DNA of 64,000 bases from Streptacidiphilus sp. MAP12-33 (GCF_041261265.1 NZ_JBGCCA010000031.1:1-64000), one strand, 5' to 3'. Shown: positions 18,260 to 54,210, counted from the stretch's first letter. The notes: generated from the letters alone by a model not told the origin. Numbers and translations are program-made.

Positions 18260-18261
18260 CT

Positions 18262-20032: not shown

Positions 20033-20036
20033 CGTC

Positions 20037-23045: not shown

Positions 23046-23139
23046 CGGCCTCCACCGGTCGAACACCGACGAAGGGCCAGTCCGAGAGGCTTACCGCCTC
23101 CGAGCTGGCCCTTCTCACGTTCTCGCGATCTCTCGCGGA

Positions 23140-36892: not shown

Positions 36893-36960
36893 CAACCAAG
36901 GCACCAAGCGCCGAGGAACCAAGCGCTGAGGAACCGAGCGCCGAGGAACCGAGCACGAGG
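36893..36960. repeat. About 16-bp tandem repeat (gaggaacc[a/g]agcgc[c/t]) of roughly four copies directly after the metallothionein-like ORF
   Basis: Direct reading. Confidence 0.6.
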
Positions 36961-37037
36961 CGGCGACGCGGCGCGTCACCGGGAAGCCGTGGGGTCCGCT
37001 CGCCCCACGGCTTCGCCAGGCGGCGCCGACCTGCCGG

Positions 37038-37256
37038 CTACCAGCCCTGCTCCAAGGTGGGCCTGCGCTCCGCGCCCTTCAGCATGTCGACGGACCTGGC
37101 GTGCTCGTCCCCGACCCGGTCCCGTACCTGGACGCCGAGGGCGTCGACCAGGGTCATCGCCGAGGGCGTGAACCACGCCAGCAGGTAGCTCTGCTGGGCG
37201 GCGAGCGGAGCTCCGTCCGCCCCCCCTCCAGCCGAGCCTCCCCTACCCGCGCCGAC
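37038..37256 (-). CDS. Possible small ORF or 3' gene fragment ending '...AMTLVDALGVQVRDRVGDEHARSVDMLKGAERRPTLEQGW'
   Basis: High GC3 in this frame. The N-terminal limit is unclear, and the upstream part of the listed ORF is antisense to 37313-37687. Confidence 0.25.
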   Translation of the reverse strand, partial: VGAGRGGSAGGGADGAPLAAQQSYLLAWFTPSAMTLVDALGVQVRDRVGDEHARSVDMLKGAERRPTLEQGW

Positions 37257-37312
37257 GGGAACCAAATGCTTCCCCGACGGGTCTTCGAGGTCGGACGTCG
37301 AGGGGAGCAGGG

Positions 37313-37687
37313 GTGGGCGCGCGGATCGGGGCACGCGGAGCGGTCGTGGGCGTGGTGGCACTCGCCCTGGCGCTCGCGAGCGGATGGTGGCTGCACTACC
37401 GGATGACCTACAAGACCTTCGCGTGGTGGTCGGCGCCGCAGAAGCTGTACTACTGCGGCCGGGACTACGACCCGTCCGGCACGGTCGCTGCACTGCCGAA
37501 GGGCGACGGCCGGCTCACCGAGGTGTACCGCTTCGGGTTCGGCTCCTGGCCGGTCTACAAGCAGACATGGACGCCGCAGGCTGCCGGGCCTCACTGCTCG
37601 CCCTCCGGGTCGGGGACGGCGGTCGTGCTCTACCTTGTCCGCGGGACCCACGCGGTCGACCAGTACAACCTCTCCGGTGGCCCGTGA
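37313..37687 (+). CDS. Hypothetical secreted/membrane protein
   Basis: It has a signal-like N-terminus 'GAVVGVVALALALASGWW' and is followed by a strong hairpin. Confidence 0.45.
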   Translation: MGARIGARGAVVGVVALALALASGWWLHYRMTYKTFAWWSAPQKLYYCGRDYDPSGTVAALPKGDGRLTEVYRFGFGSWPVYKQTWTPQAAGPHCSPSGSGTAVVLYLVRGTHAVDQYNLSGGP

Positions 37688-37744
37688 CCGACCGGCCGAC
37701 GACGGCCCGGAAGAGGCTGGGAAGAGAAGAGGGCCCCTCAGCCG

Positions 37745-37783
37745 CGCCGTGTGCGCGGGTGAGGGGCCCGGTGGTGCGGGTCG
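37745..37783. terminator. GC-rich hairpin terminator
   Basis: 'gggcccctcagccgcgccgtgtgcgcgggtgaggggccc'. Confidence 0.6.
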
Positions 37784-38000
37784 TTACTTCTTGCCCTGGG
37801 TCTGGGGGGCCCTATTTTCGACCCTGGTCAGCGGGCTGAGCACCTCAGCTGACCTCCTATTGGGCAGTCGTTGTACGTCGTCATTGGTCGTCCTAGGGCG
37901 ACCCCGGAGGGCCCAGAGAGGGCCCAGCGGTGGACCCCTGACCGATGAAGAGGAGCAGCCCGCGCCCGGCTTGCGGTCGACCCCGGACGGATACTCCCGG

Positions 38001-38912
38001 TCAGCCGGTCGTCCGCTTCATCTCGTCCGCCGCCCCTCCGGATCTTTGCTCCGCGCCACCTTTGCGGAGGTGCTCCAGAGCCTCTCCGACCGCGAGCGAC
38101 TGATCTTTGTCCGCCTCCCAGCGGGCCATCACCTCGGCGGCGGCAAGGGCTTGTTCCGCGGGCAGTCCCTTCGCGCGAAGCGCATCCGCGACCTCAAGCA
38201 TCTCGGGCCCCCACCGCCAAGCACGAGCCGCAATCTTGGGGATGTAGTCGACCTCGGACAGGTAGCTGCCACCTCGCCCTGCCGCGATGTCCAGCAGCTC
38301 ATCCCCTACGCCGTGGGCTTCTGCGAGTCCGTACGCCACCGCAGCAAGCGCCCGGCTCGCCTTCTGGTAGGCGCTGTAGGACAGCTTGAGAGCCGACGCT
38401 TGGCCGTAGTGGTCTGCCGAGAGCGCCTTGACGTGGACGCCCGTGCCCGCGAACAGGCCCTCAATGATCCGAACCGCTCGCATTGGGCCAGCAAGGTAGA
38501 GCCGCGCGGTCTTGGAGCCTCTGGGCGGCGAGCCCACCACCGCGCCATCAATGACCGCCTTGGCCGTGCCGTTCAAGCCCAAGCGCGCGGCGATCCGCGT
38601 CACGCGAACGGGCGAGATCGCGTTGCACTCCACGAAGATCCCTGCGAATCGGAGACTCGCCACGGCTTCGGCCACATCCTCGGCGTGGGCCGGCGGGCAG
38701 ATGCTCAGAACTACGCCGGAGCGCTCCACTAGCTCGCCCAGCGTCCGCACCTCCGTAAGACCTGCGGCGCGCGCCCTGGCCCTGCTGGCTTCGCTCCGCC
38801 CTGCGCTGCACCAAAGCACGGTCGCGCCAGCATCCGCCGCCTGCGCGGCGATGGCCGCGCCCATGCTGCCCGGGTGGAGCACCCCGACCACTGGCTTTAG
38901 AGCGCCGGTCAT
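38001..38912 (-). CDS. NAD(P)-binding dehydrogenase (6-phosphogluconate-dehydrogenase-like Rossmann N-terminus; DUF1932-like)
   Basis: 'MTGALKPVVGVLHPGSMGAAIAAQAADAGATVLW' is a GxGxxG/A Rossmann motif. GC is about 62%. Confidence 0.6.
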   Translation of the reverse strand: MTGALKPVVGVLHPGSMGAAIAAQAADAGATVLWCSAGRSEASRARARAAGLTEVRTLGELVERSGVVLSICPPAHAEDVAEAVASLRFAGIFVECNAISPVRVTRIAARLGLNGTAKAVIDGAVVGSPPRGSKTARLYLAGPMRAVRIIEGLFAGTGVHVKALSADHYGQASALKLSYSAYQKASRALAAVAYGLAEAHGVGDELLDIAAGRGGSYLSEVDYIPKIAARAWRWGPEMLEVADALRAKGLPAEQALAAAEVMARWEADKDQSLAVGEALEHLRKGGAEQRSGGAADEMKRTTG

Positions 38913-39499
38913 GGCAACCACTCGTCCAACAGCGGCACCGATCGCATGGCCTCTGACGAAACGGCATCGTGGATCAGCTCTGCGCTCGCCTGTGGGCTGG
39001 CCTGCTCCGTGTCGATGACGAGGGCCCACCCCGGTTCTCTGTGGTGCTCAAGGAGGTCAAGGCGAGTCTCATCCCACACCTCCAACCGCGCAGGCACGTC
39101 CTGATCCCCCCGACGCTCGCACCGACTCGCCGTCGCCGTTCGCGAGCACCACAGCAAGACCCTGACCCATCCGGCGGGATACTTCTCGACCGCCACGGCT
39201 CCGGCAATCTGTCCCATGTGCAGGATCGGGACGGTGCCGGCGTCGAACATCTCCGTCAGCCCTGCCCGATCGATCCCGTATCGGGCGCCATAACGCTCGT
39301 TGCTGTAGAGCAGCCCGCCGCTGGCGTCCAGCTCCGCCAGATGGTCGGCAGTGGTGAGCCGGTATCCCGTCGTTCTGCCCGGTCCCGCCTTGAGCCGCTG
39401 GAAGAGTCGATAGGCGCTGCTGAGCGAGGACAGTTCGGCGGTAACTGTGTCCTTCCCAGCCCCCGGAGGGCCGTAGAGAATGACGCCCTTGGGCTTCAC
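38909..39499 (-). CDS. P-loop kinase, guanylate-kinase / PhnN (ribose-1,5-bisphosphokinase)-like
   Basis: 'VILYGPPGAGKDTVTAEL' and 'YSNERYGARYGIDRAGLTEMFDAGTVPILHMG' parallel the recalled PhnN/GK pattern 'GPSGSGKDSLLAEL...[29 protein letters not shown]'. Confidence 0.55.
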   Translation of the reverse strand: MKPKGVILYGPPGAGKDTVTAELSSLSSAYRLFQRLKAGPGRTTGYRLTTADHLAELDASGGLLYSNERYGARYGIDRAGLTEMFDAGTVPILHMGQIAGAVAVEKYPAGWVRVLLWCSRTATASRCERRGDQDVPARLEVWDETRLDLLEHHREPGWALVIDTEQASPQASAELIHDAVSSEAMRSVPLLDEWLP

Positions 39500-40500
39500 A
39501 GTCCGCCTCCGCTCAACATGTCGCGTGCCTGGTCGGCAGCAGCGATGGCTGCCCCCAAGCGGTTGTCAACGATGAAGTGGGGCCCCTGCGGGCGTAGTTC
39601 GAGATTGAGTGACGCGAGGTACTCGTCCCACGCTTCCATCTTCCACACGTCGCGTGCAGCGCCTCGGAATTCGATGTACTCGCGCATCGAGTCGGGATCG
39701 CACTCGACCCAGATGCTGGCCACTGCCACGCGCTTGGACTTGCAGCGGTTGTAGAAACGCTGCATCCAGTCCGACTGGGAAAATTCAAGGATGAACGGGG
39801 CGTCCAGGATGGTGGAGATTCCGCAGTCAAGATTGTCCCACGCCGCCTCCATGAGGCACCGATATTCGAGCGGGCGCACTTTTTCCCTGTATAGATCGGA
39901 GCTGCGGTCGTTTGCCTCTCCACCGAGCGCCACCAATAGCTGGTCAACGAGAGGGCGAGTGAGCGAATCCTTGTCCAGGATCGGCCAACCGGTAAGACCA
40001 CCGAGGAACTTCGCATACTCCGACTTGCCGCTACCCGCGAAGCCCCCCACCAGTAGGACCGTGGGGCCGCTAGTCACGTCTCCGCTCGTACGCCTCTGCC
40101 AAGCATCAATAACCCGCTCACGTAGGGCCGACCCATCGACCCCATCTGATCCCTCTTGGATGCTGCCAAGCGCCTCGCGGATGATCTGCGACTGATCGGG
40201 AAGCACATCCGCCGTACGCATGGTCTGCACTGGGGCACCCTCTCCGGGGAGCGCGCGGCGGAAACCAAGCTCAGACTCACTCAGACGGTAAAGCAGGCTG
40301 TAAGCGCGTCGATAGTGCGGGCCGGGGAAAGATGTTCCCTTTTCGTGCGCCCATATCGTTTGGAAATTGGCGGCAACGTTCAGACTGTGCCGCTCACCAA
40401 TCTCGCGAAGCAGTTCCCCGGATTCCTCCAGGGTCAGCCCGTGCTTTTCGCGCGCCTTGCGCAACGTCTCCGGTGTCCAATCTGGATGCTGCCGCGACAT
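39496..40500 (-). CDS. HTH (XRE-like) domain fused to a P-loop NTPase/kinase (AAA_33 / zeta-toxin-like fold)
   Basis: An RBS 'aggagggg' precedes the ATG at 40500. It has an N-terminal 'TPETLRKAREKHGLTLEESGELL' and a Walker A 'LLVGGFAGSGKSEYAKFLG'. GC is about 55%. Confidence 0.55.
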   Translation of the reverse strand: MSRQHPDWTPETLRKAREKHGLTLEESGELLREIGERHSLNVAANFQTIWAHEKGTSFPGPHYRRAYSLLYRLSESELGFRRALPGEGAPVQTMRTADVLPDQSQIIREALGSIQEGSDGVDGSALRERVIDAWQRRTSGDVTSGPTVLLVGGFAGSGKSEYAKFLGGLTGWPILDKDSLTRPLVDQLLVALGGEANDRSSDLYREKVRPLEYRCLMEAAWDNLDCGISTILDAPFILEFSQSDWMQRFYNRCKSKRVAVASIWVECDPDSMREYIEFRGAARDVWKMEAWDEYLASLNLELRPQGPHFIVDNRLGAAIAAADQARDMLSGGGL

Positions 40501-40708
40501 TTCCCCTCCTAGGAAACAGCTCGCTGCGGCGAGTGTAGCCACTCGCCGCAGCGCTGAAAAGTCGTGATAAAGCTCGTGATACTAGACGTGTAAAAGCGGG
40601 CCCCGAAACCTGGATAAGGGACCGTGATACCGACTTTGCCGAATCGGGTGTGAAGTGGAGCACAGCCGAAGGAGGGCAGACAGATGCAGGAGTCAGGGCA
40701 CAAGACAG

Positions 40709-40750
40709 AGGGGTGGCGACGACATGTCGTTGTCGTCGCCACCCCTCTGC
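40709..40750. terminator. Perfect hairpin 'agaggggtggcgacgacatgtcgttgtcgtcgccacccctct' downstream of the GntR gene
   Basis: A 19-bp perfect inverted repeat. Confidence 0.6.
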
Positions 40751-40761
40751 CCCCAAGCGGA

Positions 40762-41112
40762 TCACCGGCCTTCAAGCTCCGCGACCCGCGCCCGGAGATC
40801 CTGCACCTCGGTGCGCAGGGCAGCCACTTCCCCCCGCAGTTGGTCGAGATCGGCCGGCGGCAGGGACTTGGCCGCAATGGCTGCGGCATCGGGAACCAGG
40901 AACGCCGCCTTCCCCTGATGGCTCTTCACGAGGCCAGCTTCACGAAGCTGAGCCACAGCAGAGCGAATCACGGTCACTGAGACGTCGTAGCGCTGCTCAA
41001 GCTGCGACAGCGAGGGAATTCGACCGGCGGCATCGAACTCGCCGGCCGCGATCCTCGCCCGAAGGTCTTCGGACACCTGCTGATAGGCGGGCTTTCCGGA
41101 CCAATCGACCAT
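40762..41112 (-). CDS. GntR-family regulator (HTH only plus a C-terminal coiled coil), Kor-like repressor of AICE-2
   Basis: 'MVDWSGKPAYQQVSEDLRARIAAGEFDAAGRIPSLSQLEQRYDVSVTVIRSAVAQLREAGLVKSHQGKAAF'. Confidence 0.7.
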   Translation of the reverse strand: MVDWSGKPAYQQVSEDLRARIAAGEFDAAGRIPSLSQLEQRYDVSVTVIRSAVAQLREAGLVKSHQGKAAFLVPDAAAIAAKSLPPADLDQLRGEVAALRTEVQDLRARVAELEGR

Positions 41113-41202
41113 CAAGGCTCCACATCTCGAATGCTTCTCTGCCCCATAGTGCCCCATCCGAGACGCGGAGGAACACACTCCGATTCTCGCTCGGCTAGGG
41201 GA

Positions 41203-41250
41203 CTTGCCAACTCTGTCTCTCTGCCCCACAGTAACTGTGAGACAGAGAGA
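41203..41250. promoter_or_regulatory. Long imperfect palindrome 'ctctgtctctctgccccacagtAactgtgagacagagagacagag' upstream of the GntR gene, a putative operator
   Basis: The 22-bp arms have 18/22 complementarity (a 3-nt bulge plus one mismatch, at ccc/c versus tc/c). Confidence 0.5.
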
Positions 41251-41447
41251 CAGAGTCTCGCCCGGAGGCCCCGTGAGACGGGCTGAAGGAAGCACTTGTT
41301 CCTTGAGAACTCAACAGTGGATGAGATTCTGGGGCGTCCCGCCTCCCCAACGCCGAGCCCATAGAGAGGGCTGCCGGCCAAGGCGGGCCGCGCGGCATCA
41401 AGGCCGCGCACGTAACCGGCCGCAGGACCCGCGAGGGTCTTGCCTCC

Positions 41448-41592
41448 GGTTCTACAGGTGCCGCCTTGCGCGGCGCCTCTCTTGCTTCGGACGACGGCGA
41501 CTGGTCTCCCGCCAAGGTTCACAGCCGCCCGCGTCCGCTTTCATCGCCCTGAGCGCAGGGCGGCTGGTCTCCCGCCAAGGTTCACAGCCGCC
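41448..41592. repeat. Iteron-like direct repeats: two exact 29-bp copies 'ctggtctcccgccaaggttcacagccgcc' plus a degenerate third
   Basis: Copies lie at about 41503 and about 41562, with a relative at about 41438. They sit upstream of the 41631 gene. Confidence 0.7.
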
Positions 41593-41630
41593 CCGCTCGG
41601 GCCTTCTACCGCTTCAAGGAGAGAAGACCC

Positions 41631-41918
41631 GTGAAGACCATGGTTGCAGGCCACGAGGCCACCTCCGCGGAGGACTTCGTGGCGCTCGCGCTCGGCATCG
41701 ACCGCGAGCTGTTCACCGGCACTCCCGACGAGACGCCGATGGACCGCGAGGCGCGCATGGACGTCGCCTCCGCGATCCTCGCCGAGCTCTACGAGAACGA
41801 CCGGGCCGCGTGGCGCTACGCCCGCGAGCTGCTGCGCACCGCGCCGGTCCCCCTGCGGCGCCGCCCGGCGCCCCGCCCCCGCACCCGTGCCCGCGTCGTT
41901 CGATCGGCGGTGGCGTGA
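41631..41918 (+). CDS. Hypothetical small protein (95 aa)
   Basis: An RBS 'aaggagag' precedes the GTG start. It is translationally coupled (TGATG) to the downstream wbl. Confidence 0.45.
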   Translation: MKTMVAGHEATSAEDFVALALGIDRELFTGTPDETPMDREARMDVASAILAELYENDRAAWRYARELLRTAPVPLRRRPAPRPRTRARVVRSAVA

Positions 41919-42727
41919 TGCCCAAGCGCCGCACGCACCTGCGCCTCGCGACGGTGGCCACCCCGGCCGCGCCGCAGCGTGGGACCTACATCACCTTGAG
42001 CGTCCCCGAGGACACGCGCCTGTCCGGCGCGGTGTGCCGCGAGGTCGCCCCTGACGTGTTCTTCCCCGAGCCCGACGACACCGAGGGCGCGGCGGAGGCC
42101 AAGCGGCTGTGCGCCGCCTGCGCGATCCGGCCGCTGTGCCTGGCGGGCGCGATCGAGCGCGACGAGCGCTACGGCATCTTCGGCGGGCTGAACACCGCCG
42201 AGCGCGACGCCCTGTCCGGCCGCCCCGGCTGCGGGACGCGCAGCGGCTACCGCCGTCACCTCATGGGCGGCGAGCCCGCCTGCGCCGCGTGCCGCGCGGC
42301 CAACACCGCCGCGAGCGCGGCCGACCGGGCCCAGCGCAACGCCAAGCGGCAGCCCTCGCCCGGCTGCGGCACCCGCACCGGCTACCAGCAGCACCGCGCC
42401 GCGGGCGAGCGCGTCTGCGCCGCCTGCCTGGTGGCGAACACCGAGTACGTCTGGGCCCAGACCGGGGCCCGGCGCGAGGACCGTACCCGCACCCAGGCCG
42501 CCCACCGTGAGGCCGCCCGGCAGCGCCGCGCGACCGAAACCGCACAGCAGGAGATGGGCCGGTGCTGCGGCACCCGCCACGGCTACCGCCTGCACCGCCT
42601 CGCGGGTGAGCCCGCCTGCGATGCCTGCCTGGAGGCGAACACCGCCTACAGCCGCGCCTACCGCAAGGCCCACCGCACCACCCCCGCCGCCGCGATCGGC
42701 GCCGACCGGATCGGAGAGGCCGCATGA
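41918..42727 (+). CDS. WhiB-like (Wbl) Fe-S transcription factor with three tandem C-terminal Cys-repeat modules
   Basis: The Wbl core is 'CREVAPDVFFPE...AKRLCAACAIRPLCLAGAIERDERYGIFGG'. It is followed by three repeats of 'CGTRxGYxxHxxxGExxCxACxxAN'. Confidence 0.7.
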   Translation: MPKRRTHLRLATVATPAAPQRGTYITLSVPEDTRLSGAVCREVAPDVFFPEPDDTEGAAEAKRLCAACAIRPLCLAGAIERDERYGIFGGLNTAERDALSGRPGCGTRSGYRRHLMGGEPACAACRAANTAASAADRAQRNAKRQPSPGCGTRTGYQQHRAAGERVCAACLVANTEYVWAQTGARREDRTRTQAAHREAARQRRATETAQQEMGRCCGTRHGYRLHRLAGEPACDACLEANTAYSRAYRKAHRTTPAAAIGADRIGEAA

Positions 42728-42927
42728 GGAACCGTCAGCCCTTCTACGGGCCGCAGCAGCAGACCTCCGGCGGGGACCGGCCGGTGGCCCAGCTCGCCGC
42801 CTGGGGCGCCGCCGCCGGGATGGTCTGGGAGTTCCACCACTACGGCATCCCGGCTCTCGCCGGCGCCGCGGGCGCGTACCTGGTGGTCCTGATCGTGCTC
42901 AAGGCGTGGCTCGGGGGTGCTCGATGA
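42724..42927 (+). CDS. Small membrane protein (67 aa)
   Basis: ATGA-coupled at both ends. It has the TM 'AYLVVLIVLKAWL'. Confidence 0.4.
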   Translation: MRNRQPFYGPQQQTSGGDRPVAQLAAWGAAAGMVWEFHHYGIPALAGAAGAYLVVLIVLKAWLGGAR

Positions 42928-44009
42928 GCCGCGCCCGCGCCGCCGGTTGGGGTCTGGCCGTGCCCGGCCTGCTGGCCCTGGCGATGTCTGCCACGACGTC
43001 GTACGCCTACCTCGGGCAGCGTCTCGGGATCACGTGGACCGTGGAGCGTGGGTTCCTGGCGGTCACCGGGGAGTCCGCGATCCTGGCCCTGTCGGTCTAC
43101 GCGTGGGCCACCCGCACGCGGGGACCGGCCCGCCTCGCGCTGGGCGCGGTGCTGATTCAGGCGCTCCCTGCCTACGCGCTGTCCGGCGGTACGGGCGGTA
43201 CGGTCCGGGTGATCCTCGGGCCGGTGCTGCTGGCCGTGGTGCTCCACCTGCTGCTCGGGCTGGAGGTCCGGGCCCGTGGCGAGCACGCGGCCGGCCTGCT
43301 CGGGCAGGCGCTGCGCGAGGCGCGCGAGCGCCTGACTGCCTGGCTGGGCATCGGCCGCCGCGGGAGCGACTCCGCGGCGATTGCCCGCAGCCGCGCCGCT
43401 GACCGCGCGGTGGCCCTCGCCGATGCCCTTGCGGGCGCCAACGAGGGCGGCTGGAAGGCCCGGAGGCTGTCCGCTCGGCTGGCCGCGGCGATCGACGCTG
43501 CCCAACACGGGCTGCCCGCGGATGAGGCGGCAGCCGCCGAACAGCACGTCGTGGCCCGCGTGGTGCGCCGCCGCTCGGTCAAGGGCTTGGCCCGTATCGA
43601 GCAGCAGCACACCTGGTCCCTCGCCGCCGCACCCCGCGTGGCGCCGGAGGAGCCCGAGCTGCCGGTGTACGTCACGCCCGACCCCGCGCCTCTCCTCCCC
43701 ACGCAGCCGTCTGTAGCGGCACCAGCCACCCGGCCGCGCCGTGCGACGGGGAAGGTCCCGAACGCGGCGCGCACCAACCCGCCGAAGCGCACGGACGCGG
43801 AGGTGCTGGACGAGGCCCGCGCGCTGACCGCGGACTGGCCGGACGAGAAGCTGACCGCGGCCGGCATCCGCAAGGCGGTGCACGTCGCCCAGGACCGGGC
43901 GCGCGAGCTGCGCGAGCAGCTCAAGGCGGAACGCGCCGCCCGCCCCTCTCTCCATTCCGTTCCGGCCCCCGACGAGACGGACGGCATCACGGACGAGGGC
44001 GCGGCCTGA
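42924..44009 (+). CDS. SpdB-like membrane protein (DUF2637-like)
   Basis: It has N-terminal TM helices similar in architecture to the 18509 gene. Confidence 0.55.
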   Translation: MSRARAAGWGLAVPGLLALAMSATTSYAYLGQRLGITWTVERGFLAVTGESAILALSVYAWATRTRGPARLALGAVLIQALPAYALSGGTGGTVRVILGPVLLAVVLHLLLGLEVRARGEHAAGLLGQALREARERLTAWLGIGRRGSDSAAIARSRAADRAVALADALAGANEGGWKARRLSARLAAAIDAAQHGLPADEAAAAEQHVVARVVRRRSVKGLARIEQQHTWSLAAAPRVAPEEPELPVYVTPDPAPLLPTQPSVAAPATRPRRATGKVPNAARTNPPKRTDAEVLDEARALTADWPDEKLTAAGIRKAVHVAQDRARELREQLKAERAARPSLHSVPAPDETDGITDEGAA

Positions 44010-44074
44010 CCGCCGTCCCACTCCGCACAGCAGGGCTTCCCTTTCCTGCTCTGCCTTCCAAGGAGGCATCTGCC

Positions 44075-44302
44075 ATGTCGTGGCACACGAACTCCCACCG
44101 CGACAACAGCCGCCCGGTCGTCCAGCACACCAGCGACGTGTCCGGCGACATCACCACCGTCGTGATCAGCGACAGCACCGGCCCGGTCGTCGCCGGAAGC
44201 GGCTCCGTCACCATCACCTGCGCCTCCGGCACCACCCTGCAGTTCAGCGGCGACGGCTTCACCTTCAGCGCCGGCGACGGCACGTCGAAGCGGGCCCAGT
44301 GA
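44075..44302 (+). CDS. Hypothetical small protein
   Basis: ORF. Confidence 0.35.
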   Translation: MSWHTNSHRDNSRPVVQHTSDVSGDITTVVISDSTGPVVAGSGSVTITCASGTTLQFSGDGFTFSAGDGTSKRAQ

Positions 44303-44667
44303 GGTTCTACGACCCCACCGGCCAACGCTTCGGTATCCCCACCTACCCGTTCCGCCTCGCCCCGGACGGCTACGCCACGCGCCGCCAACTGCGCGCGGAC
44401 GGGCTTCGTCCCGGAGGCCAAGAGGTCGCCGCACAGATCCTGTGGCGCTCGCGCAAGACCCGGGGCGGAGTGCGGGTCGCCTACCTGTACCGGCGCGACC
44501 TCGCCAAGCCCGTCCGGCCGATGACTCCGGGCAAGACCGCCGCCCTCGCCGCGGCGATGCTCGCCCGCCGGACCTGCCCCGTGTGCCGGCACGACGTCGG
44601 CTACGTGGTGCAGAGGTCCGTTGGGGCGTGCGTCCCGTGCCAGGACACCGCCGCGCTCGCGGCCTGA
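44299..44667 (+). CDS. Hypothetical protein with a C-terminal CxxC...CxxC
   Basis: It has a GTG start coupled to the previous stop, and contains 'CPVCRHD...CVPC'. Confidence 0.35.
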   Translation: MRFYDPTGQRFGIPTYPFRLAPDGYATRRQLRADGLRPGGQEVAAQILWRSRKTRGGVRVAYLYRRDLAKPVRPMTPGKTAALAAAMLARRTCPVCRHDVGYVVQRSVGACVPCQDTAALAA

Positions 44668-44714
44668 GGACCAGCGCAACCACCGCTGCCATCGCTTGAG
44701 TTGGAGAACCGACC

Positions 44715-44945
44715 TTGACCGGCAAGAACAACAGCAAGTCCGAGCCCGTGATGCGATTCCAGGGCCTGATGGGCGCCATCGTGACCGTGGGCGTCACCGA
44801 CACGGGCGAGTACGGCGTCTGGTACTGGCACTGCAACGGCTGCATCGACTCCCACGACGACACCAACATGGACCGCCTCCGCGACAGCGCGAACGAGCAC
44901 GCCGCCACCTGCCGCGCTCTGCCGCCCGAGCACGCCGCCGCGTAG
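44715..44945 (+). CDS. Hypothetical small protein
   Basis: ORF. Confidence 0.3.
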   Translation: MTGKNNSKSEPVMRFQGLMGAIVTVGVTDTGEYGVWYWHCNGCIDSHDDTNMDRLRDSANEHAATCRALPPEHAAA

Positions 44946-44990
44946 CGCCCGCACCGGTCCCCTTGCACAGACCGCTACCAGCCGGGGCGC

Positions 44991-47285: not shown

Positions 47286-47443
47286 CGGACACCGCTCGCA
47301 CCGGTGCTAGACCTAGCGGCCCGCGCTGCTAGGTCTAGCACCCCTACTAGCACTTCATTTGGGCTCTGGCCAGGGACCTCGTAGCTAGCAGCCCACCTGC
47401 GAAAACACCCCGAACCCCGGTTTCGAGCCCCTGGGAGACCCCC

Positions 47444-47686
47444 GTGCTCACCGCTATAGCCTGCCTACTCATCGTTACGCTCGGTTACGGCATCGTGTGT
47501 GCGGCGCAGCCGTTCGGGCGCTGCCGCCGGTGCCGCGGCTTCGGCTTCCACTTCAAGACCGACCGCCGCGGCCGGATGCGCCGCGGCAAGGACTGTCGCC
47601 GCTGCAAGGCCACCGGCTACCGCATCCGCACCGGCCGCCACCTGTACAACCTCGCCCTGCGCCTCTACCGCGAGGGCACCCGATGA
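47444..47686 (+). CDS. Small Cys/Arg-rich membrane protein
   Basis: ORF with 'CRRCRGFGFHF...CRRCKATGY'. Confidence 0.4.
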   Translation: MLTAIACLLIVTLGYGIVCAAQPFGRCRRCRGFGFHFKTDRRGRMRRGKDCRRCKATGYRIRTGRHLYNLALRLYREGTR

Positions 47687-47937
47687 CCGTCCGGGCCGCC
47701 CGCGCCGCAACGCTCGCCCTCACCGCCGCGCTGGCCGGCGCGTGCGCCGCGCCAGAAGCCGACGTCTCCGGGACCGTCATCGACCGCTACCCGTGGCACA
47801 ACCCCGCCACCCACAGCGAAGAACTGCGGCTCACGATCCGCCTCGCCGACGGCAGCACCATGTCGTTCCGGGTCTACGACCCCACCTACGGCAAGTGCTT
47901 CCGCGGCTCCCACTACCCCGCCTGCAAGAACCGCTGA
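47683..47937 (+). CDS. Small putative lipoprotein
   Basis: ATGA-coupled. Contains 'LAGACAAPEAD'. Confidence 0.4.
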   Translation: MTVRAARAATLALTAALAGACAAPEADVSGTVIDRYPWHNPATHSEELRLTIRLADGSTMSFRVYDPTYGKCFRGSHYPACKNR

Positions 47938-47954
47938 GCGACAGGAGAGCCATC

Positions 47955-48149
47955 GTGTTCGTCACCATCTCGCTCGTCGTCCTGTTCGGCGCCGCCGCCC
48001 TGTTCATGATCCGCAACCGGGCGCTGGCGATCAGCGGCGGGCTCGTCGCCGCCCTCTTCGGCTTCTACCTCGCCCGCACCGGCGCCGCCCCGACCATCGG
48101 CCACGCCGTGACCGCGGTCATCCACTACCTCAACAACGTCGCCCACTAG
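47955..48149 (+). CDS. Small membrane protein
   Basis: An RBS 'acaggagag' precedes the GTG start. It has two TM segments. Confidence 0.4.
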   Translation: MFVTISLVVLFGAAALFMIRNRALAISGGLVAALFGFYLARTGAAPTIGHAVTAVIHYLNNVAH

Positions 48150-48169
48150 CCCCGGAAGGAACCCCCGCC

Positions 48170-48679
48170 GTGGACATCAGCCCGAACGCGCCGGACCTCC
48201 GGCCCGCCCCGCTCGTCCTCCCGGCCGCGCCGATGGAGCCCACCCGCTACTCGCCGGTGCTCCCCGCCGACCTCATCGACCGCACCCCGGTCCTCGCCCA
48301 CCAGCTCGCCATGTTGATGGCTGCCCAGCAGTACGCCGCCGCCCCCGCCCCGCCGCCCGCACCGCCGGTCGAGACGCGGGTGTCGGGGCGGGCCAAGGGC
48401 GCCGCCCTCGTCGCGGTGGCCGGCGGGACCGGCGTCGGCGCCGCGGCAACCGGCGTCGGCTACGCCGCCGGACTGATCGCATCCGCAGGGAGTGGACTCA
48501 TGACCGCAGCCATCGCGCTGGCCATCGCCACCGGCTCCATCTTCGCCCTGACCCTGCTGCTCCGCGGCACCCTCGCCCCCCGCGGCGGCAGGGACAGCGG
48601 CACCACCTACGTCACGCAGAACGTCACCGCGACCGGCCTGTTCGGCCGCGCCCACGGCACCGTCAACAACTACCGCTGA
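48170..48679 (+). CDS. Spd-like membrane protein
   Basis: It has a Pro-rich N-terminus and C-terminal TMs. Confidence 0.45.
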   Translation: MDISPNAPDLRPAPLVLPAAPMEPTRYSPVLPADLIDRTPVLAHQLAMLMAAQQYAAAPAPPPAPPVETRVSGRAKGAALVAVAGGTGVGAAATGVGYAAGLIASAGSGLMTAAIALAIATGSIFALTLLLRGTLAPRGGRDSGTTYVTQNVTATGLFGRAHGTVNNYR

Positions 48680-48695
48680 ACAGGGGGAAGGCCGC

Positions 48696-48944
48696 ATGAG
48701 CTGGGCGAGCAAGGACAACCCCGGCATCTACGTGTTCGCGCCGTCCCCCGAGAGCTACCCGTGGTCGATGCGTGCGCCCTCCCCGACGCCGAGGGCGCAC
48801 TACGTGTGCCGCTGCGGCCAAACCAACGCCGCCGTGGGCGAGGACGCCGTCAAGGCGCTGATCAGTGAGTACCTCACCCACATGAAGGCGACGCACCCGG
48901 ACCTGCCCGAGGTCCCCGGCGGGCAGGCCAAGCGCGCCGCCTGA
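48696..48944 (+). CDS. Small hypothetical protein
   Basis: ORF. Confidence 0.35.
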   Translation: MSWASKDNPGIYVFAPSPESYPWSMRAPSPTPRAHYVCRCGQTNAAVGEDAVKALISEYLTHMKATHPDLPEVPGGQAKRAA

Positions 48945-49048
48945 TTCACATCTGCATCAACTCCAGTACACAGCAGCCAAATTGAAGATCCGTGCTGCGC
49001 GCCGAAGCCCAGAAAGGCCCCTTTGAGGGCCTGAGAGGACTCTGCGGG

Positions 49049-49897
49049 ATGGAATCCACCTTCGACCTGATGAACGTCGCTCTGGCGGTCGCACAACGCG
49101 GTCGCCCGGTCCTTCCGCTCGCCGTGGGCAAGCTTCCCTTCGGAAACTGCGGCGCCTGCCAGAAGAGCCGCTGCGGGGACCGTCCGAACATGCTCAAGCC
49201 CGGCCCGTGTCGGTGTCCGCGCCCATGCCATGGGTGGGCCGCGGCCACCACCGACCCGCGCGTCATCACCTCGCCCCACTGGGCTGCGGCCTGGCGGCGC
49301 GCGGAGGCCCTGGCCTACCACCCCGGGGGCGCCGGGCTGACCGTGCTGGACCTCGACAACGCCGACGCGGTCGCGTGGGCCAGGGAGCATCTACCGGCCA
49401 CGCTGACCGTGGCCACGACCCGCGGCGAGCACTGGCTCTACCGCGGGGCGATGCGCTCCCGCAACAGCGTGCGGCCCGGCATAGACATCAAGTCCACGAT
49501 GGCCTACGCCCGCTGGCTCGGTCCCGGCATCGGTGCCATAGCGGCGCTCCCCGACGCGGTGCGTGCGTTGGCCGCGAAGGAGCCCGCCCCGGTCCGGCCG
49601 GCGGCTCAGGTCAACGTCGTGCCCCCGGGCGCCGCTGGCAGGCAGTGCCGTCACCGCACGCCCGCCTATCTTGACCGTGGCATCGACATGGCGGAGCAGC
49701 GCATCACCGAGGCCCGCGAAGCGATCCACAACACCGTGTACCGGACGTTCCTCGCCGTGTTGTCGGCCCACGGCCGGTGCGGCTGCCTCACCGACGCCCA
49801 CGTCGCGCGCCTATTCACCGCCGCGCAGGCCAAGGGCGAATCGCCGCGGCATTGCACCGACGCATGGGCCAACGCCCGCAGCAAGTTGGGACTGTAG
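49049..49897 (+). CDS. Bifunctional DNA primase/polymerase (prim-pol) N-terminal-domain protein, the replication initiator of AICE-2
   Basis: 'LAVAQRGRPVLPLAVGKLPFGNCGACQ...GAGLTVLDLDN' is the prim-pol fold signature. Confidence 0.6.
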   Translation: MESTFDLMNVALAVAQRGRPVLPLAVGKLPFGNCGACQKSRCGDRPNMLKPGPCRCPRPCHGWAAATTDPRVITSPHWAAAWRRAEALAYHPGGAGLTVLDLDNADAVAWAREHLPATLTVATTRGEHWLYRGAMRSRNSVRPGIDIKSTMAYARWLGPGIGAIAALPDAVRALAAKEPAPVRPAAQVNVVPPGAAGRQCRHRTPAYLDRGIDMAEQRITEAREAIHNTVYRTFLAVLSAHGRCGCLTDAHVARLFTAAQAKGESPRHCTDAWANARSKLGL

Positions 49898-49899
49898 CC

Positions 49900-51375
49900 A
49901 TGTCCGACGACGACAAGACCCCGGCCCGCGAGATCATCGCCGACTACGCGCGGCAGCACTTCCGGTACTTCCGCACCGCCGACGGGACCGTGTACGCGCA
50001 ACAGAACGGCCACCCCGTGGCCCGCCCGATCCGCTCGCAGGGCACCTCGGGCAGCCACCGGCAGGAGCTCATGGTGGGCCTGTTCAACGACGGGCACGGG
50101 GTGTTCAACGGCACCGCGCTCAAGGAAGCGCTGGACCTCATTGAGGCCCTCGCGCTGATCCAAGACGTCCAACCCGTGCACATCCGTGTCGCGCCGGGAT
50201 TCGACGGTGCAACGTGGCTGGACCTGGGCCGCAACGACGGGCAGTCCATCCGGATCCACCCCACCGGCTGGGACACCCTCACCCCCAACCCGCAGGAGGT
50301 GTGCTGGCGACGTACCCAGCTCACCGGCGAACTCCCCCTACCCGCCCGGGACACGAACGGCAAGGGCATCGACCTCCTCCTGGGCCTGTGCAACTTCGCC
50401 AGTGCGGAGACCGAGACCCTCGCCCTCGCCTGGCTGATCGGCTGCCTCGGACCGTCCGTGCCGGTCCCCGCACCCTTCCTCACCGGCCCCCAAGGCGCGG
50501 GCAAGTCCACCGGGGGACGGATGCTCGTCAGGGTCATCGAAGGCATGAGCGGCGACCTGCGCCGGGCACCGAAGGACGAAGAGAACCTGATCGCGGCCGT
50601 GGCTGCCGGGTGGGTCACCGCCCTGGACAACCTCTCCCACCTGGCCCCCGACCTGTCTGACCTGATGTGCTGCATCGTCACCGGCGCCGAAACCATCAAA
50701 CGCGCCCTCTACACCGACGGGGATGTCGTCCGCGCCCGCTACCGCCGGCCCCTGCTGCTGACCGGCATCGACGTCGGCGTGATCCGCCCCGACCTCGCCG
50801 AACGCCTCCTCCCGCTACGTCTGGAACGCCCCCGCACCCGGCGCACCGAAGCCGAGCTGTGGACGGAGTTCGAAGAGGCCCTACCCGTCATCCTCGGGTC
50901 TCTCCTCGACCTCACGGTCAAGGTCCGCGCAGCCGAGGCCGACATCCCCACCGATCTGCGCATGGCCGACTTCGCCCACCTGTGCGCACAACTCGACGTC
51001 GCCACCGGCCTCACCTCGCTGGGCGCTTACCGGACCAGCCTGGACGACCTCAACGACGACGTCATCGAAGGCGACCTCCTCGCACAGACCGTCCTCCAGC
51101 ACGCCGCCGGCCTCGACGCGGGAGCAGAGGAACGCAAGACGTCCGCCGAGTGGCTCCAGGTGCTGACCCACCTCTACACCGGCGACGGCTTCCGCCCCCT
51201 GCCCAAGGGCTGGCCCACCACGGGCAAGGTCCTCTCCGACCGCCTCAAGCGGCTCCAGCCCACCCTCACCGCCCGCGGCGTCCTGATCGACTGGGGCCGC
51301 AACAAAGCAGCCCGCTACATCGAGATGGCCCGCCCACCGGCACCGCCGCCGAACGCGCAGGAACAGGCGTTCTGA
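49900..51375 (+). CDS. Phage/plasmid primase C-terminal (P4/D5-type) SF3 helicase-like ATPase
   Basis: It has a Walker A 'LTGPQGAGKSTGGRM', follows prim-pol and is coupled to it. Confidence 0.6.
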   Translation: MSDDDKTPAREIIADYARQHFRYFRTADGTVYAQQNGHPVARPIRSQGTSGSHRQELMVGLFNDGHGVFNGTALKEALDLIEALALIQDVQPVHIRVAPGFDGATWLDLGRNDGQSIRIHPTGWDTLTPNPQEVCWRRTQLTGELPLPARDTNGKGIDLLLGLCNFASAETETLALAWLIGCLGPSVPVPAPFLTGPQGAGKSTGGRMLVRVIEGMSGDLRRAPKDEENLIAAVAAGWVTALDNLSHLAPDLSDLMCCIVTGAETIKRALYTDGDVVRARYRRPLLLTGIDVGVIRPDLAERLLPLRLERPRTRRTEAELWTEFEEALPVILGSLLDLTVKVRAAEADIPTDLRMADFAHLCAQLDVATGLTSLGAYRTSLDDLNDDVIEGDLLAQTVLQHAAGLDAGAEERKTSAEWLQVLTHLYTGDGFRPLPKGWPTTGKVLSDRLKRLQPTLTARGVLIDWGRNKAARYIEMARPPAPPPNAQEQAF

Positions 51376-51534
51376 CCTGCAACTGAACGCCCCGAAAGGC
51401 AAGAGGAGCACCACCGCGCCCCGGGGTGCTCCTCTTGCTATTCGGCGCAGCGCGCCGCCCGTGGTCGCGCCGCGAAGCGGCTCCTTCTTCTCGTTCTGAC
51501 GCGCACCACACCACAACGACAACCCCATCTCTTG

Positions 51535-51790
51535 TCCTAAGAGAAGAGATCCTGCGTCACCCGCGTCACCCGAGGTCGAAAAGGGCGCCTGAGCTGCCAC
51601 TACAGCGGTGACGCAGCCGCCGACGGCTGCGTCATCCTGCGTCACCTGCGTCACCACCGGGTGACGCAGACCCGTGCCGGTGACGCACCCCCGAAACCTC
51701 TGCGTCACCCAAAGCCGCAGGCCAGAAGCACGGATGACGCGGATGACGCGGTGACGCAGAACGCGGCACCTCGGACAGACATGGCGTCGA
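51535..51790. repeat. Dense array of about 12 copies of the GTGACGCAG / CTGCGTCAC motif in both orientations
   Basis: Direct reading, between the rep genes and xis. Confidence 0.8.
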
Positions 51791-51812
51791 GAACCCAGAA
51801 ACCGAGGACTCA

Positions 51813-52058
51813 ATGAGCCGAATACGTTCCGCTCAATCCGACCAGGACACCGCGCTCCACAGCGTCCTGCCCGATAGGTACCTCACGACCGACGACATCG
51901 CCGAAATCTTCGACGTACCCATCGAAACGGTCTACCAGTGGCGCAGAAAACGCACGGGTCCCCCCGGCTTCCGCATCGGCAAGCACGTGCGTTACGACCC
52001 CGCTGAAGTGAGGGCCTACGTCGCTCAGCTCAAGAACGTCGACCGCGCCGCGGCTTGA
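51813..52058 (+). CDS. xis: Excisionase / AlpA-like HTH DNA-binding protein
   Basis: 'LTTDDIAEIFDVPIETVYQWRRKRTGPPGFRIGKHVRYDPAEVRAYV'. Confidence 0.7.
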   Translation: MSRIRSAQSDQDTALHSVLPDRYLTTDDIAEIFDVPIETVYQWRRKRTGPPGFRIGKHVRYDPAEVRAYVAQLKNVDRAAA

Positions 52059-52134
52059 CGCAGCCTCTCGCACCACCAGGGGTGGCCGTCGGACGGCCAC
52101 CCCTTCTCAACACTGAGAAGGGACTCCGCCTCCA

Positions 52135-53370
52135 TTGGCAGGGAGCATCCAAGACCGTTGGTACAAGACCATCACCGACGCCGAGGGGAAGACGGTTCGC
52201 CTCAAGACCGACCGCTACGGGAAGGGCATGCGCTACCGGGCCCGCTACTTCACGCCCGATGGAGAGCGAAAGACCAAGTCCTTCCCTGACGGGCAGAAAC
52301 GCCTCGCCGAGCAGTGGCTGAGCAACGTCACTGCGGATGTTGCTCGTGGCGACTTCATCGACCCCAACGCATCCCGCGTGACGTTCCAGGCGTTCGCTGA
52401 GAAATGGCTCGAAACCCAAAGCGGCGACCCGAACACCAGGGCATCCATGGTGTCGCAACTCACACTGCATGCCTTTCCTCGCATCGGCCCGCGTCCGCTT
52501 GGGTCGTTCCAGCCAAGTCACATTCGCGAGTTTGTGACGCAACTCGAAGCGTCCGGCATGTCCGGCTCGTACGCCCGCGTCATCTTCTCCAACGTTCGCG
52601 CTGTGCTCTCAGCGGCCGTGGAGGATGGGTGCCTTCGGCGGAATCCCTGCAACTCGCGGACGGTCACCCTGCCGGCCATGGGCATGCGGCGAGTCGTGCC
52701 ATGGGAGCCTGACCGCGTCTTCACGGTGCGTGCCGCCATGGTCGAACGCTTCCGGCCCATGGTCGACGTGGGTGCCGGATGCGGCCTGCGGCAAGGCGAG
52801 ATTCTTGGCCTTTCCGTCGATGACATCGACTTCGACAGCGGCACCTTGCACGTCGTACAACAGCTGAAGCTGAGCCTGAGCAAGCCCGTGTTCGCGCCCC
52901 CGAAGGGAGGAAAGCTCCGCGACGTACCGTTGCCCGACCCCGTGGCGGAGTCGCTGCGCGCGCACATCGAGCGGTTCCCGCCCGTAGAGATCAAGCTCCC
53001 GTGGATGCGGGCGAACGGCCAGCCGGTGACCCGTCGGCTCATCTTTACAGGCCCCAACGGCGGGCACGTCTGGCGGACGTCGTTGAACGAAGACCATTGG
53101 AAGCCCGCACTCGCGCAGGCGGGCGTCATCCCGAAGGCCAAGAGTCGCGAGCACGCTGCCGCCCGCGAGCACGGCATGCACGCGCTGCGGCACTTCTATG
53201 CCTCGGTGCTGCTGGACGCGGGGGAGAGCATCAAGGCCCTCGCCGAGTACCTCGGCCACTCCGACCCGGGGCTGACGCTGAAGGTGTACGCACACCTCAT
53301 GCCGAGCAGCCGGGACCGCGCCCGCAAGGCCCTCGAACGCGTCCTCCAGCCCCAGGGGTCGGAGGACTGA
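52135..53370 (+). CDS. int: Tyrosine integrase of AICE-2
   Basis: It has an N-terminal arm-binding 'RLKTDRYGKGMRYRARYFTPDGE' and a catalytic 'HALRHFYASVLLDAGESIKALAEYLGHSDPGLTLKVYAHL' (R..HxxR..Y). Confidence 0.9.
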   Translation: MAGSIQDRWYKTITDAEGKTVRLKTDRYGKGMRYRARYFTPDGERKTKSFPDGQKRLAEQWLSNVTADVARGDFIDPNASRVTFQAFAEKWLETQSGDPNTRASMVSQLTLHAFPRIGPRPLGSFQPSHIREFVTQLEASGMSGSYARVIFSNVRAVLSAAVEDGCLRRNPCNSRTVTLPAMGMRRVVPWEPDRVFTVRAAMVERFRPMVDVGAGCGLRQGEILGLSVDDIDFDSGTLHVVQQLKLSLSKPVFAPPKGGKLRDVPLPDPVAESLRAHIERFPPVEIKLPWMRANGQPVTRRLIFTGPNGGHVWRTSLNEDHWKPALAQAGVIPKAKSREHAAAREHGMHALRHFYASVLLDAGESIKALAEYLGHSDPGLTLKVYAHLMPSSRDRARKALERVLQPQGSED

Positions 53371-53394
53371 GGGCCCAGAGTGGTCCCCGATCAC

Positions 53395-53437
53395 AAAAAA
53401 GCCTCCCACCCGCGCCATTCGCGCAGGTGGGAGGCAT
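53395..53437. terminator. Intrinsic terminator of gpmA (minus strand)
   Basis: 'aaaaaagcctcccacccgcgccattcgcgcaggtgggaggc'. Confidence 0.65.
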
Positions 53438-53448
53438 GATCATGTTTT

Positions 53449-54210
53449 CTACTTCTTCTTGCCCTGGTTCTTGACCGCCTCGATCGCGGCGGCGGCGGCC
53501 TCCGGGTCGAGGTAGCGGCCGCCCTTGGTGAGGGGCTTGAAGTCGGCGTCGAGCTCGTAGACGAGCGGGATGCCGGTGGGGATGTTGAGCCCGGCGATGG
53601 CCTCGTCGGAGATGTCGTCGAGGTGCTTGACCAGCGCGCGCAGCGAGTTGCCGTGGGCGGTGACCAGGACCGTGCGGCCGGCGGCCAGATCCGGGACGAT
53701 CGCGTCGTACCAGTACGGCAGCATGCGGTCGACGACGTCCTTGAGGCACTCGGTCTGCGGGCGGATGTCGCCCGGCAGCTCGGCGTAGCGGAGGTCGTGG
53801 GCCTGCGAGTACTCGGCGTCGTCGGCGAGCGCGGGCGGCGGGGTGTCGTAGGACCGGCGCCAGAGCATGAACTGCTCCTCGCCGAACTCGGCGAGGGTCT
53901 GCGCCTTGTCCTTGCCCTGGAGCGCGCCGTAGTGGCGCTCGTTCAGGCGCCAGCTGCGGTGGACCGGGATCCAGTGGCGGTCCGCGCGGTCCAGCGCGAT
54001 CTGTGCGGTGCGGATGGCGCGGCGCAGCAGGGAGGTGTGCAGCACGTCGGGCAGCAGGCCCTCGGCGGCGAGCAGCTCGCCGCCGCGTACGGCCTCCTTC
54101 TCGCCCTTGGCGTTCAGGTCGACGTCGACCCAGCCGGTGAACAGGTTCTTCTCGTTCCACTGGCTCTCGCCGTGGCGGAGCAGCACAAGACGGTAGGGAG
54201 CATCAGCCAT
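53449..54210 (-). CDS. gpmA: 2,3-bisphosphoglycerate-dependent phosphoglycerate mutase
   Basis: '[26 protein letters not shown]' and 'HGNSLRAL' are present. The start is at the ATG 54210. Confidence 0.9.

Follow-up and report, generated by a model that had tools for sequence, protein, structure and literature searches.

An actinomycete integrative and conjugative element probably inserted at the 3' end of gpmA in a Streptacidiphilus-like chromosome

Where does a conjugative element end when its integrase gene abuts the 3' end of a protein-coding gene and no tRNA marks the attachment (att) site? The question is raised by the locus around gpmA, the gene for phosphoglycerate mutase, in the 64,000-nucleotide stretch of high-GC actinomycete DNA NZ_JBGCCA010000031.1:1-64000, the whole of which is referred to below as the window. 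An earlier description of this DNA, the sequence-only reading, had placed an actinomycete integrative and conjugative element (AICE) beside the 3' end of gpmA, at a site without a tRNA, but had left the att core unresolved for want of a long perfect repeat. We conclude, with a probability of roughly 0.85, that positions 37787-53467 are an AICE of ∼15.7 kb that entered a Streptacidiphilus-like chromosome by integrase-mediated site-specific recombination at a core in gpmA. ARAGORN finds no tRNA near the element, the sole tRNA of the window being a tRNA-Thr at 23140-23216, so that in this respect the earlier description holds.

Comparisons were made with 80 Streptomycetaceae loci, obtained by a scan with the gpmA protein and limited to one genome per species. 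The closest genomes by gpmA amino acid identity are those of Streptacidiphilus jiangxiensis (98%), S. anmyonensis (95%) and Streptacidiphilus sp. EB129 (92%) and, judged from its sequence, the host is Streptacidiphilus-like. The three closest Streptacidiphilus loci, L001-L003, were used as 'empty' sites.

The att core and the two ends of gpmA

Both ends of the element carry the same 13-bp sequence, CTTCTTGCCCTGG, as an exact direct repeat (Table 1), the proximal copy forming the last codons of gpmA; in the sense of that gene the core reads CCAGGGCAAGAAG and encodes QGKK, the last residues of the enzyme. The likeness extends over 17 nt with one mismatch (37787-37803 versus 53455-53471), and when the 13-mer is searched for with at most one mismatch only these two sites are found in 64 kb, against 0.06 expected from shuffled sequence, so that a chance likeness of the ends can be rejected. 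A short perfect repeat thus resolves the core, and the 3-bp indel that had been noted between the far end and the gpmA end is an extra AAG Lys codon.

The junctions, both written in the gpmA sense, are AAGAA/CCAGGGCAAGAAG/AAGTAG followed by AAAACATGATCATGCCTCCCACCTGCGCG... on the proximal side and CAGAC/CCAGGGCAAGAAG/TAACGACC... on the distal side. gpmA itself is intact and convergent with the integrase gene int, its stop codon being at 53449-51 and not at 53452-54; the stop codons of the two genes are separated by 78 nt, and 84 nt lie between the end of int and the start of the proximal core (53455). At the far end the minus strand reads ...QTQGKK-stop and then a GC hairpin. These features, together with int, xis and a terminator next to the gpmA stop, are present just as the sequence-only reading had described them.

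L001-L003 align with the window through gpmA and then again from ∼36.9 kb leftwards, through phoU, phoR and beyond, and none of them has a counterpart of 36922-53371. The gene phoU begins 0.4-1.7 kb after gpmA in these relatives versus 16.9 kb in the window. It had been proposed that the regions downstream of gpmA be aligned with those of relatives lacking the element; in this alignment all three relatives are without 36922-53371 and their gpmA ends KK-TAA, in keeping with an insertion beside the 3' end of the gene.

Which of the two gene ends is the native one can be judged from the same loci. In 3/3 Streptacidiphilus and 16/16 Kitasatospora-labelled loci gpmA ends AAGAA CCAGGGCAAGAAG-stop, giving KK and no third AAG, and in L001-L003 the stop codon is TAA, as in the distal copy (37784-37803); a third AAG is found at the gpmA end in most Streptomyces loci. 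The working gene of the window now ends ...QGKKK-TAG, written AAGAAGAAG-TAG plus TGATCATGCCTCCCACCTGCGC... and continued by the U-tailed hairpin, and this end is the integrase-proximal arm of Streptomyces elements with the same integrase lineage. We also compared the 'tail', the sequence after gpmA at the proximal and at the distal end, with the gpmA loci of the set. The proximal tail is 72-84% identical to that of eight Streptomyces loci with the same integrase lineage or fragments of it (L052, L072, L023, L053, L065, L055, L024 and L050), as compared with a median of 62% over all loci, and of the two tails the distal one is slightly the better match to the Kitasatospora and Streptacidiphilus loci. 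In L003 the gpmA end with its terminator can be aligned to the region of the distal hairpin. Comparison of the gene ends supports the view, already put forward from the likeness of the two ends, that the far-end copy is the displaced native end of gpmA and that the element has supplied a new end and a new terminator. In the proximal hairpin, which separates gpmA from the convergent int, 6/13 stem pairs show compensatory changes across 17 elements, in keeping with a terminator under selection both to end gpmA and to insulate int.

Distal junctions with a second copy of the core are present in seven of the 80 loci. The distal core is identical in five of these (L014, L056, L069, L072 and L076), in L023 it is a one-base variant (G in both copies), and in L024, where the junction is a remnant, there is one mismatch. 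Each distal core is preceded by a homologous arm (CCCGCTGACCAGGGTCGAAAATAGGGCCCCCCAGAC/core in the window, CCCGCTGACCAGGGCCGAAAAACGGGCCCGCCAGAC/core in L023), and since the junctions of the relatives carry both core and arm we place the element end at 37787-37803 and not at ∼40.6 kb. The three low-GC genes on the minus strand at 38001-40542 are therefore cargo.

Attachment arms and integrase classes

Heterobivalent integrases of the lambda type have an N-terminal arm-binding domain and use repeats on both attP arms, away from the core. The features of such a system are found here: the catalytic residues R...HxxR...H...Y (RHRY) are present in Int, within the motifs GLRQGE, HALRHFYAS, LGHSD and KVYAHL, and repeats occur on both arms at fixed distances. 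In every element examined, two 7-mers with 11-bp spacing directly follow int at 79-84 nt from the core, and the other arm has a 7-mer pair or triplet 116-127 nt from the core. A P-arm repeat in this position (79-84 nt from the core start) is found in 23/80 gpmA loci versus 0.6% of random 150-nt windows. In the window the P' arm repeats are GGGCCCA (37909-15), GGGCCCA (37920-26) and GGACCCC (37932-38); the first P-arm repeat is degenerate, GGGGACC in place of TGGGCCC.

Within one element the two arms carry the same 7-mer; between elements it varies and is TGGGCCC, TGGGCCG or TGGAACC. The N-terminal sequences of 120 Int homologues likewise fall into classes, namely AGSIQDRW with RYRARY, AGH[IV]QDRW with RYRARY and AGHIFDRW with RYQARY, and the two sets pair as SIQ/RYRARY with TGGGCCC (the class of the present Int, AGSIQDRW...RYRARY), H[IV]Q/RYRARY with TGGGCCG and HIF/RYQARY with TGGAACC. 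The N-terminal class predicts the 7-mer in 17/17 elements, six of which were predicted before the DNA was read. As the class of the 7-mer changes together with the N-terminal motif of Int, there is good comparative evidence for the 7-mers as predicted arm-type integrase-binding sites. A KKK-TAG end with a TGATCATGCC hairpin is a signature of the SIQ and HIF classes.

The P' arm further contains a conserved CCCGCTGACCAGGG.CGAAAA stretch, which adjoins the core, and a palindrome (37826-37854). GTCGTT/GTCGTC (AACGAC-type) repeats occupy ∼37867-37894, on the core side of the distal arm repeats. Repeats of the AACGAC type are conserved across all three integrase classes and are candidate sites for Xis or for a host factor.

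These features suggest the following course of events. A single reciprocal crossover within the 13-bp core would account for all four flanks. The attP would mimic a gene end, with ...QTQGKKK-TAG, a U-tailed hairpin and a 7-mer pair abutting the int stop on one side, and ∼110 bp of conserved arm followed by three arm-type repeats on the other. Integration would leave gpmA intact, adding a Lys, a TAG stop and the element terminator, which would protect int against transcription running on from gpmA; the native KK-TAA end would be stranded 15.7 kb away together with its hairpin. By gene content and by analogy with other AICEs, Xis and Int would excise the element, restoring the site as ...AAGAACCAGGGCAAGAAGTAACGACC... 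/ ...GTCAAGAACCAGGGCAAGAAGTAACGACCCGC..., and the Prim-Pol together with a P-loop Rep-like protein would replicate the circle. The same analogy suggests that the FtsK-like Tra would move double-stranded DNA into the recipient hypha, that small membrane proteins would spread the element and that the GntR protein would repress the transfer operon. The KKK-TAG signature and the best integrase relatives, all from Streptomyces (up to 89% identity), point to a Streptomyces-type lineage as the source of the element.

Gene content and competing readings

The features of the locus are collected in Table 1. Of the conjugative and replicative gene set that had been claimed for the interior we find Int, Xis, Prim-Pol, an FtsK-like Tra and a GntR regulator, with a putatively Rep-like P-loop protein beside the Prim-Pol, and the set as a whole is that of an AICE. 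Full-length Streptomyces integrases of 411 aa share up to 89% identity with Int. Homologues of the P-loop protein, 34-35% identical, are encoded beside xis/int in L042 and L050, and a replication role is plausible from this position. The open reading frame (ORF) at 47444-47686 has a counterpart, a hypothetical gene, in the plasmid NZ_CP107792.1 (70% identity). No type IV secretion system families were found among the ORFs scanned. The cargo stretch has a GC content of 0.62-0.69 and lies inside the att boundaries; its genes have no PADLOC defence-system match, and for them, as for the Rep-like protein and a 124-aa ORF in the flank, NCBIfam, PHROGs, PADLOC and PDB searches returned nothing informative. 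Within the WhiB-like ORF we observe three copies of a 113-nt repeat (42228-42676) that encodes Cys-rich motifs, and PHROGs WhiB-like models match this ORF in up to four stretches.

Table 1. Positions of the features of the gpmA locus, in order along the window
Feature	Position	Strand	Basis or remark
phoR	34405-35721	-	chromosomal context
phoU	35901-36578	+	chromosomal context
Terminator-like GC hairpin, probably native and displaced (B' side, distal junction)	37731-37769	-	-37.3 kcal/mol, z -6.0
Stop TAA, probably native to gpmA and displaced	37784-37786	-	directly after ...QGKK; same as KK-TAA in L001-L003
Distal att core CTTCTTGCCCTGG	37787-37799		likeness runs to 37803 with one mismatch
Integrase-distal arm of attP (P' arm)	37800-37908		kept in position and sequence in L023, L072, L024, L014, L069, L076
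P' arm-type repeats, putative integrase-binding	37909-37938		-127/-116 from core, as in other elements
Cargo, three genes	38001-40542	-	Pfam; DUF1932/NAD-binding dehydrogenase-like, AAA_18 kinase-like and AAA_33 P-loop proteins
GntR-family helix-turn-helix (HTH) regulator, KorSA-like by position	40762-41295	-	Pfam GntR E 7e-14, NCBIfam; start codon uncertain
Two 35-nt direct repeats, 97% identical, 63 nt apart; candidate operator	41496-41593		repeat search; divergent GntR/transfer-operon intergenic region
Operon of small and membrane proteins	41631-44945	+	frame plot of GC at third codon positions (GC3), Pfam, PHROGs, tblastn versus NZ_CP107792.1 genes
WhiB-like protein, internal Cys-rich repeats	∼41903-42727	+	Pfam WhiB, PHROGs WhiB-like
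DUF2637/SpdB-like protein	∼42927-44009	+	in plus-strand operon 41631-44945
Zinc-binding RRQRL-like protein	∼44290-44667	+	in plus-strand operon 41631-44945
Tra, FtsK/SpoIIIE-like DNA translocase, 764 aa	44991-47285	+	PHROG 1358 E 1.3e-23; weak Pfam FtsK_SpoIIIE match
Small ORFs between tra and rep (47444-47686, 47499-48149, 48170-48679, 48696-48944)	47444-48944	+	GC3-based calls
Prim-Pol (bifunctional primase/polymerase)	48992-49897	+	Pfam PF09250 E 2.5e-10
P-loop protein, RepPP position, 493 aa	49894-51375	+	Walker A GPQGAGKST; start codon uncertain
Xis, HTH_17 excisionase-type	51813-52058	+	Pfam PF12728 E 1.3e-11; kept beside int in relatives
Int, tyrosine integrase, 411 aa, TTG start	52135-53370	+	Pfam Phage_integrase (PF00589), Phage_int_M, SAM-like domains
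P arm-type repeats (putative)	53371-53388		GGGCCCA (53371-77), GGTCCCC (53382-88), directly after int stop
gpmA intrinsic terminator, probably element-supplied	53401-53435	-	15-bp stem and U6; -41 kcal/mol, z -7.3
Stop TAG (53449-51) and extra Lys codon (53452-54), probably element-supplied	53449-53454	-	sequence, comparison of gene ends
gpmA, phosphoglycerate mutase, 253 aa, target	53449-54210	-	Pfam His_Phos_1; 98% identical to S. jiangxiensis
Proximal att core CTTCTTGCCCTGG	53455-53467		exact copy
Major facilitator superfamily (MFS) transporter gene	54316-55743	+	chromosomal context beyond gpmA

Several observations weigh against the insertion of an AICE into native gpmA as outlined above. 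The 'empty' loci L001 and L003 themselves carry arm-repeat relics after gpmA, so that the ancestral state of the site is not pristine. The likeness of the distal hairpin to the terminators of relatives is modest, 68% versus 64% for the proximal one, and because of this the assignment of the native end rests mainly on KK-TAA, position and the logic of the junctions. Proteins identical to PhoU and Int are absent from the records, and the search produced neither an element-free conspecific site nor a circular form; in PLSDB no free plasmid matches the attP as reconstructed. The P-loop Rep-like protein received no family assignment in Pfam, NCBIfam, PHROGs and PDB searches, and no Nudix/Pif gene was found in the element. 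Finally, excision, replication and transfer are proposed by analogy with known AICEs.

The relics in question lie at 10757-10839 in L001 and at 10757-10850 in L003, where gpmA is followed, at the usual distance and with no integrase, by a hairpin and a GGGCCG...TGGGCCG repeat pair; they are relics of the arm of an element of the TGGGCCG class. Between phoU and the displaced terminator of gpmA the window itself has 865 bp (36922-37786) that L001-L003 lack and that may be a relic of an older element. This segment contains the 124-aa ORF (37313-37687), whose product is hydrophobic in its N-terminal part and matches no family; the stop of the ORF adjoins degenerate arm-like repeats (37688-37710) directly beyond the distal hairpin. 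The idea that this ORF is an integrase remnant was rejected, as it has neither a Pfam match nor a tblastn match in the 80 loci.

Of the competing readings, the one that survives best is that the distal 'gene end' was left by an earlier element, by tandem accretion, and that the present element inserted into a relic att rather than into virgin gpmA. The 865-bp stretch with its ORF, the arm-like repeats at its edge and the tendency of the site to gather relics and arrays (two elements in L023, an element and a relic in L069 and in L072) would all fit such a history, yet the KK-TAA is exactly the native end of L001-L003, and we consider it unlikely though a serious contender. Either way, how the present element integrated and where it ends would be unchanged.

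It is somewhat less likely still that the AICE integrated as described and has since lost its activity, to persist as a fixed island. Decay of AICEs is commonly reported (PMC9513070), and the lack of a detected circular form or conspecific empty site, the degenerate first P-arm repeat (GGGGACC), the missing Pif/Nudix gene and the uncertain start of the GntR ORF, which overlaps another ORF, would be expected of such an island. Against this, Int, Xis, Tra and Prim-Pol are full-length when compared with homologues, the two core copies are identical, and the degenerate first repeat also occurs beside a full-length integrase in S. albogriseolus (L084), as well as beside an integrase fragment in L052.

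A shorter element that ends at ∼40.6 kb, with the genes at 38.0-40.5 kb chromosomal or part of a separate insertion, is very improbable. A lower GC content at 39-41 kb (0.62-0.63) and the opposite orientation of the three genes might suggest a boundary there, but no core-like sequence is found near 40.6 kb, the conserved P' arm and arm-type repeats (37800-37938) lie directly inside the distal core, and the relatives lack the whole of 36922-53371; a boundary at ∼40.6 kb was rejected on these grounds. Two findings that would have spoken against the element as proposed had been named in advance, a repeat elsewhere in the window and relatives with the 38-40 kb genes but without int/xis; there is no such repeat, the conserved integrase-distal arm beginning directly inside 37800, and none of the 80 loci has these genes. 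A prophage, or an integrative mobilisable element that is not conjugative, is equally improbable, though the 'phage integrase' family name and the phiRv2-like label of some homologues might evoke it; the prophage reading was rejected since Pfam and PHROGs scans of the element matched no capsid, terminase or tail families and FtsK-like Tra, Prim-Pol, a DUF2637-like protein and GntR occur in AICE order.

The gpmA site in other genomes and among known systems

The integration of an AICE at the gpmA core is not confined to the window. Integrase homologues (64-90% identity) directly follow gpmA in 11/80 species, nine of them full-length and two frameshifted, and short integrase fragments do so in six more, for a total of 17/80. 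With an arm-repeat pair or a 'GATCAYGCC' hairpin lead as the criterion for a P-arm relic, relics without any integrase are found in 15 further loci (15/63 integrase-free), including L001 and L003, so that the site is used or scarred in 32/80 species (∼40%). Six integrase homologues that were retrieved by a protein search, independent of gpmA, are all encoded 78-80 nt from a convergent gene for a 253-aa His_Phos_1 protein, which is followed by an MFS or other gene. The integrase module occurs on different backbones, with RepSA and a short Tra in L032, L047, L056, L063 and L085 and with a RepPP-like protein in L042 and L050.

Two complete elements stand in tandem at gpmA in Streptomyces benahoarensis (L023, 865-10877), with integrases of different classes, 87% SIQ/TGGGCCC and 68% HIQ/TGGGCCG, and with the core variant CCAGGGGAAGAAG the same in both copies seen. 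L069 and L072 each have an element plus a relic, and neighbours are of different classes in all three arrays and at the distal flank of the window itself. Elements that share the 13-bp gpmA core thus split into at least three arm-site/N-terminal classes, and we suggest, tentatively and with more doubt than conviction, that co-residents may be orthogonal and form stable tandem arrays; were this true, each Int/Xis pair would assemble only on its own arms. As a corollary, the gpmA stop and terminator of many 'empty' Streptomycetaceae genomes could be element relics.

The classical AICEs pSAM2, SLP1 and pMEA300 (reviewed in PMC2440964) resemble the present element in size (11-17 kb), in Int and Xis at one end beside att, in having one FtsK-like Tra, a GntR-type regulator, spread genes and a Rep module, which here is partly putative, and in an attP that replaces the 3' end of the target. 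They differ in that their targets are tRNA genes with ∼45-60 bp of identity, as opposed to a protein-coding gene and a 13-bp core, and in using RepSA, where this element would use Prim-Pol and a P-loop protein. According to Ghinet et al. 2011 (PMC3218068) AICEs with tyrosine integrases reside in tRNA 3' ends except for the pSLS subfamily, whose target is unnamed. pSLS of Streptomyces laurentii, compared by description only, shares the order Tra, Prim-pol, RepPP, Int-Tyr, with the P-loop protein of our element in the RepPP place, and a non-tRNA site, and Sav3980 and other 'no tRNA' AICEs in Table S1 of that work are candidate relatives only.

Protein-coding targets as such have been described. 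In Choufa et al. 2022 (PMC9513070) 14/51 insertions are in protein-coding genes, rlmN and a gene for a glycosyltransferase among them, and accretion and decay at hotspots are documented, with AICE decay reported to be common. AICE06 and AICE12 of that Streptomyces soil population (Table S5) are like the present element in having a tyrosine integrase, PrimPol with RepPP, the latter putative here, and protein-coding targets, and unlike it in that the targets are the glycosyltransferase gene and rlmN and the repeats 34 and 66 nt. Neither gpmA nor the core appears in that paper or its tables, and in the literature searched we found no paper that links AICEs or conjugative elements of Streptomyces with gpmA.

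The backbone has its closest counterpart in NZ_CP107792.1, a circular 18.45-kb plasmid of Streptomyces sp. NBC_00562 that is syntenic with the element, with identities of 51% over 759 aa for Tra, 53% for Prim-Pol, 55% for Xis and 55% for Int, the last being the best plasmid-borne integrase match, and with several small ORFs in common. As this plasmid is circular, the backbone type exists as a free replicon. Unlike the element, NZ_CP107792.1 has an attP without a gpmA-like core and carries a Nudix gene and a YfjI-type Rep. The sole PLSDB match to the attP covers the P arm and core at 73% and lies at 181565-181670 of NZ_CP030074.1, a 970-kb replicon of Streptomyces cadmiisoli.

Further afield, phage 21 and e14 integrate at icd in E. 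coli, and in Streptococcus thermophilus the fda 3' end is the site of ICESt1 and ICESt3. The likeness lies in a tyrosine recombinase, the 3' end of a central-metabolism gene and a substitute end; hosts, integrases and transfer machinery are unrelated, and here ∼4 codons, the stop and the terminator would be replaced. A difference from lambda-type integrases is that a single core specificity goes with three classes of arm site, which vary together with the N-terminal motif.

The proposed integration at gpmA leaves known AICE biology standing; the element is well preserved and of an ordinary kind, at a target that we did not find named in the literature. To the AICE repertoire it would add a defined non-tRNA site, the last four codons of gpmA, with core, arms, repeats and substitute terminator mapped. 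The one-codon change from KK to KKK would be a natural scar of transfer from a Streptomyces-type lineage into Streptacidiphilus. Three arm-site/integrase classes on one core amount to a natural experiment on how heterobivalent integrases change arm specificity, and could yield orthogonal integration vectors for Streptomyces engineering.

The window also holds a first AICE at 9343-23185, with a perfect 44-bp direct repeat at its ends (9343-9386 and 23142-23185) that is the 3' part of tRNA-Thr(TGT). Its genes include RepSA (20207-21673), an FtsK-like Tra (16495-17880) and an integrase (21879-23045), and its cargo stretch, low in GC, includes a gene for an HNH endonuclease (10059-11249). In the downstream flank of phoU (36899-36954) there are at least three tandem 15-nt units, AGGAACCAAGCGCCG-like. 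In ten Streptomyces loci (L029, L035, L045, L046, L053, L054, L056, L057, L063 and L079) phoU-phoR lies upstream of the MFS gene and not downstream of gpmA, and the gpmA-phoU linkage has therefore been rearranged in part of the genus.

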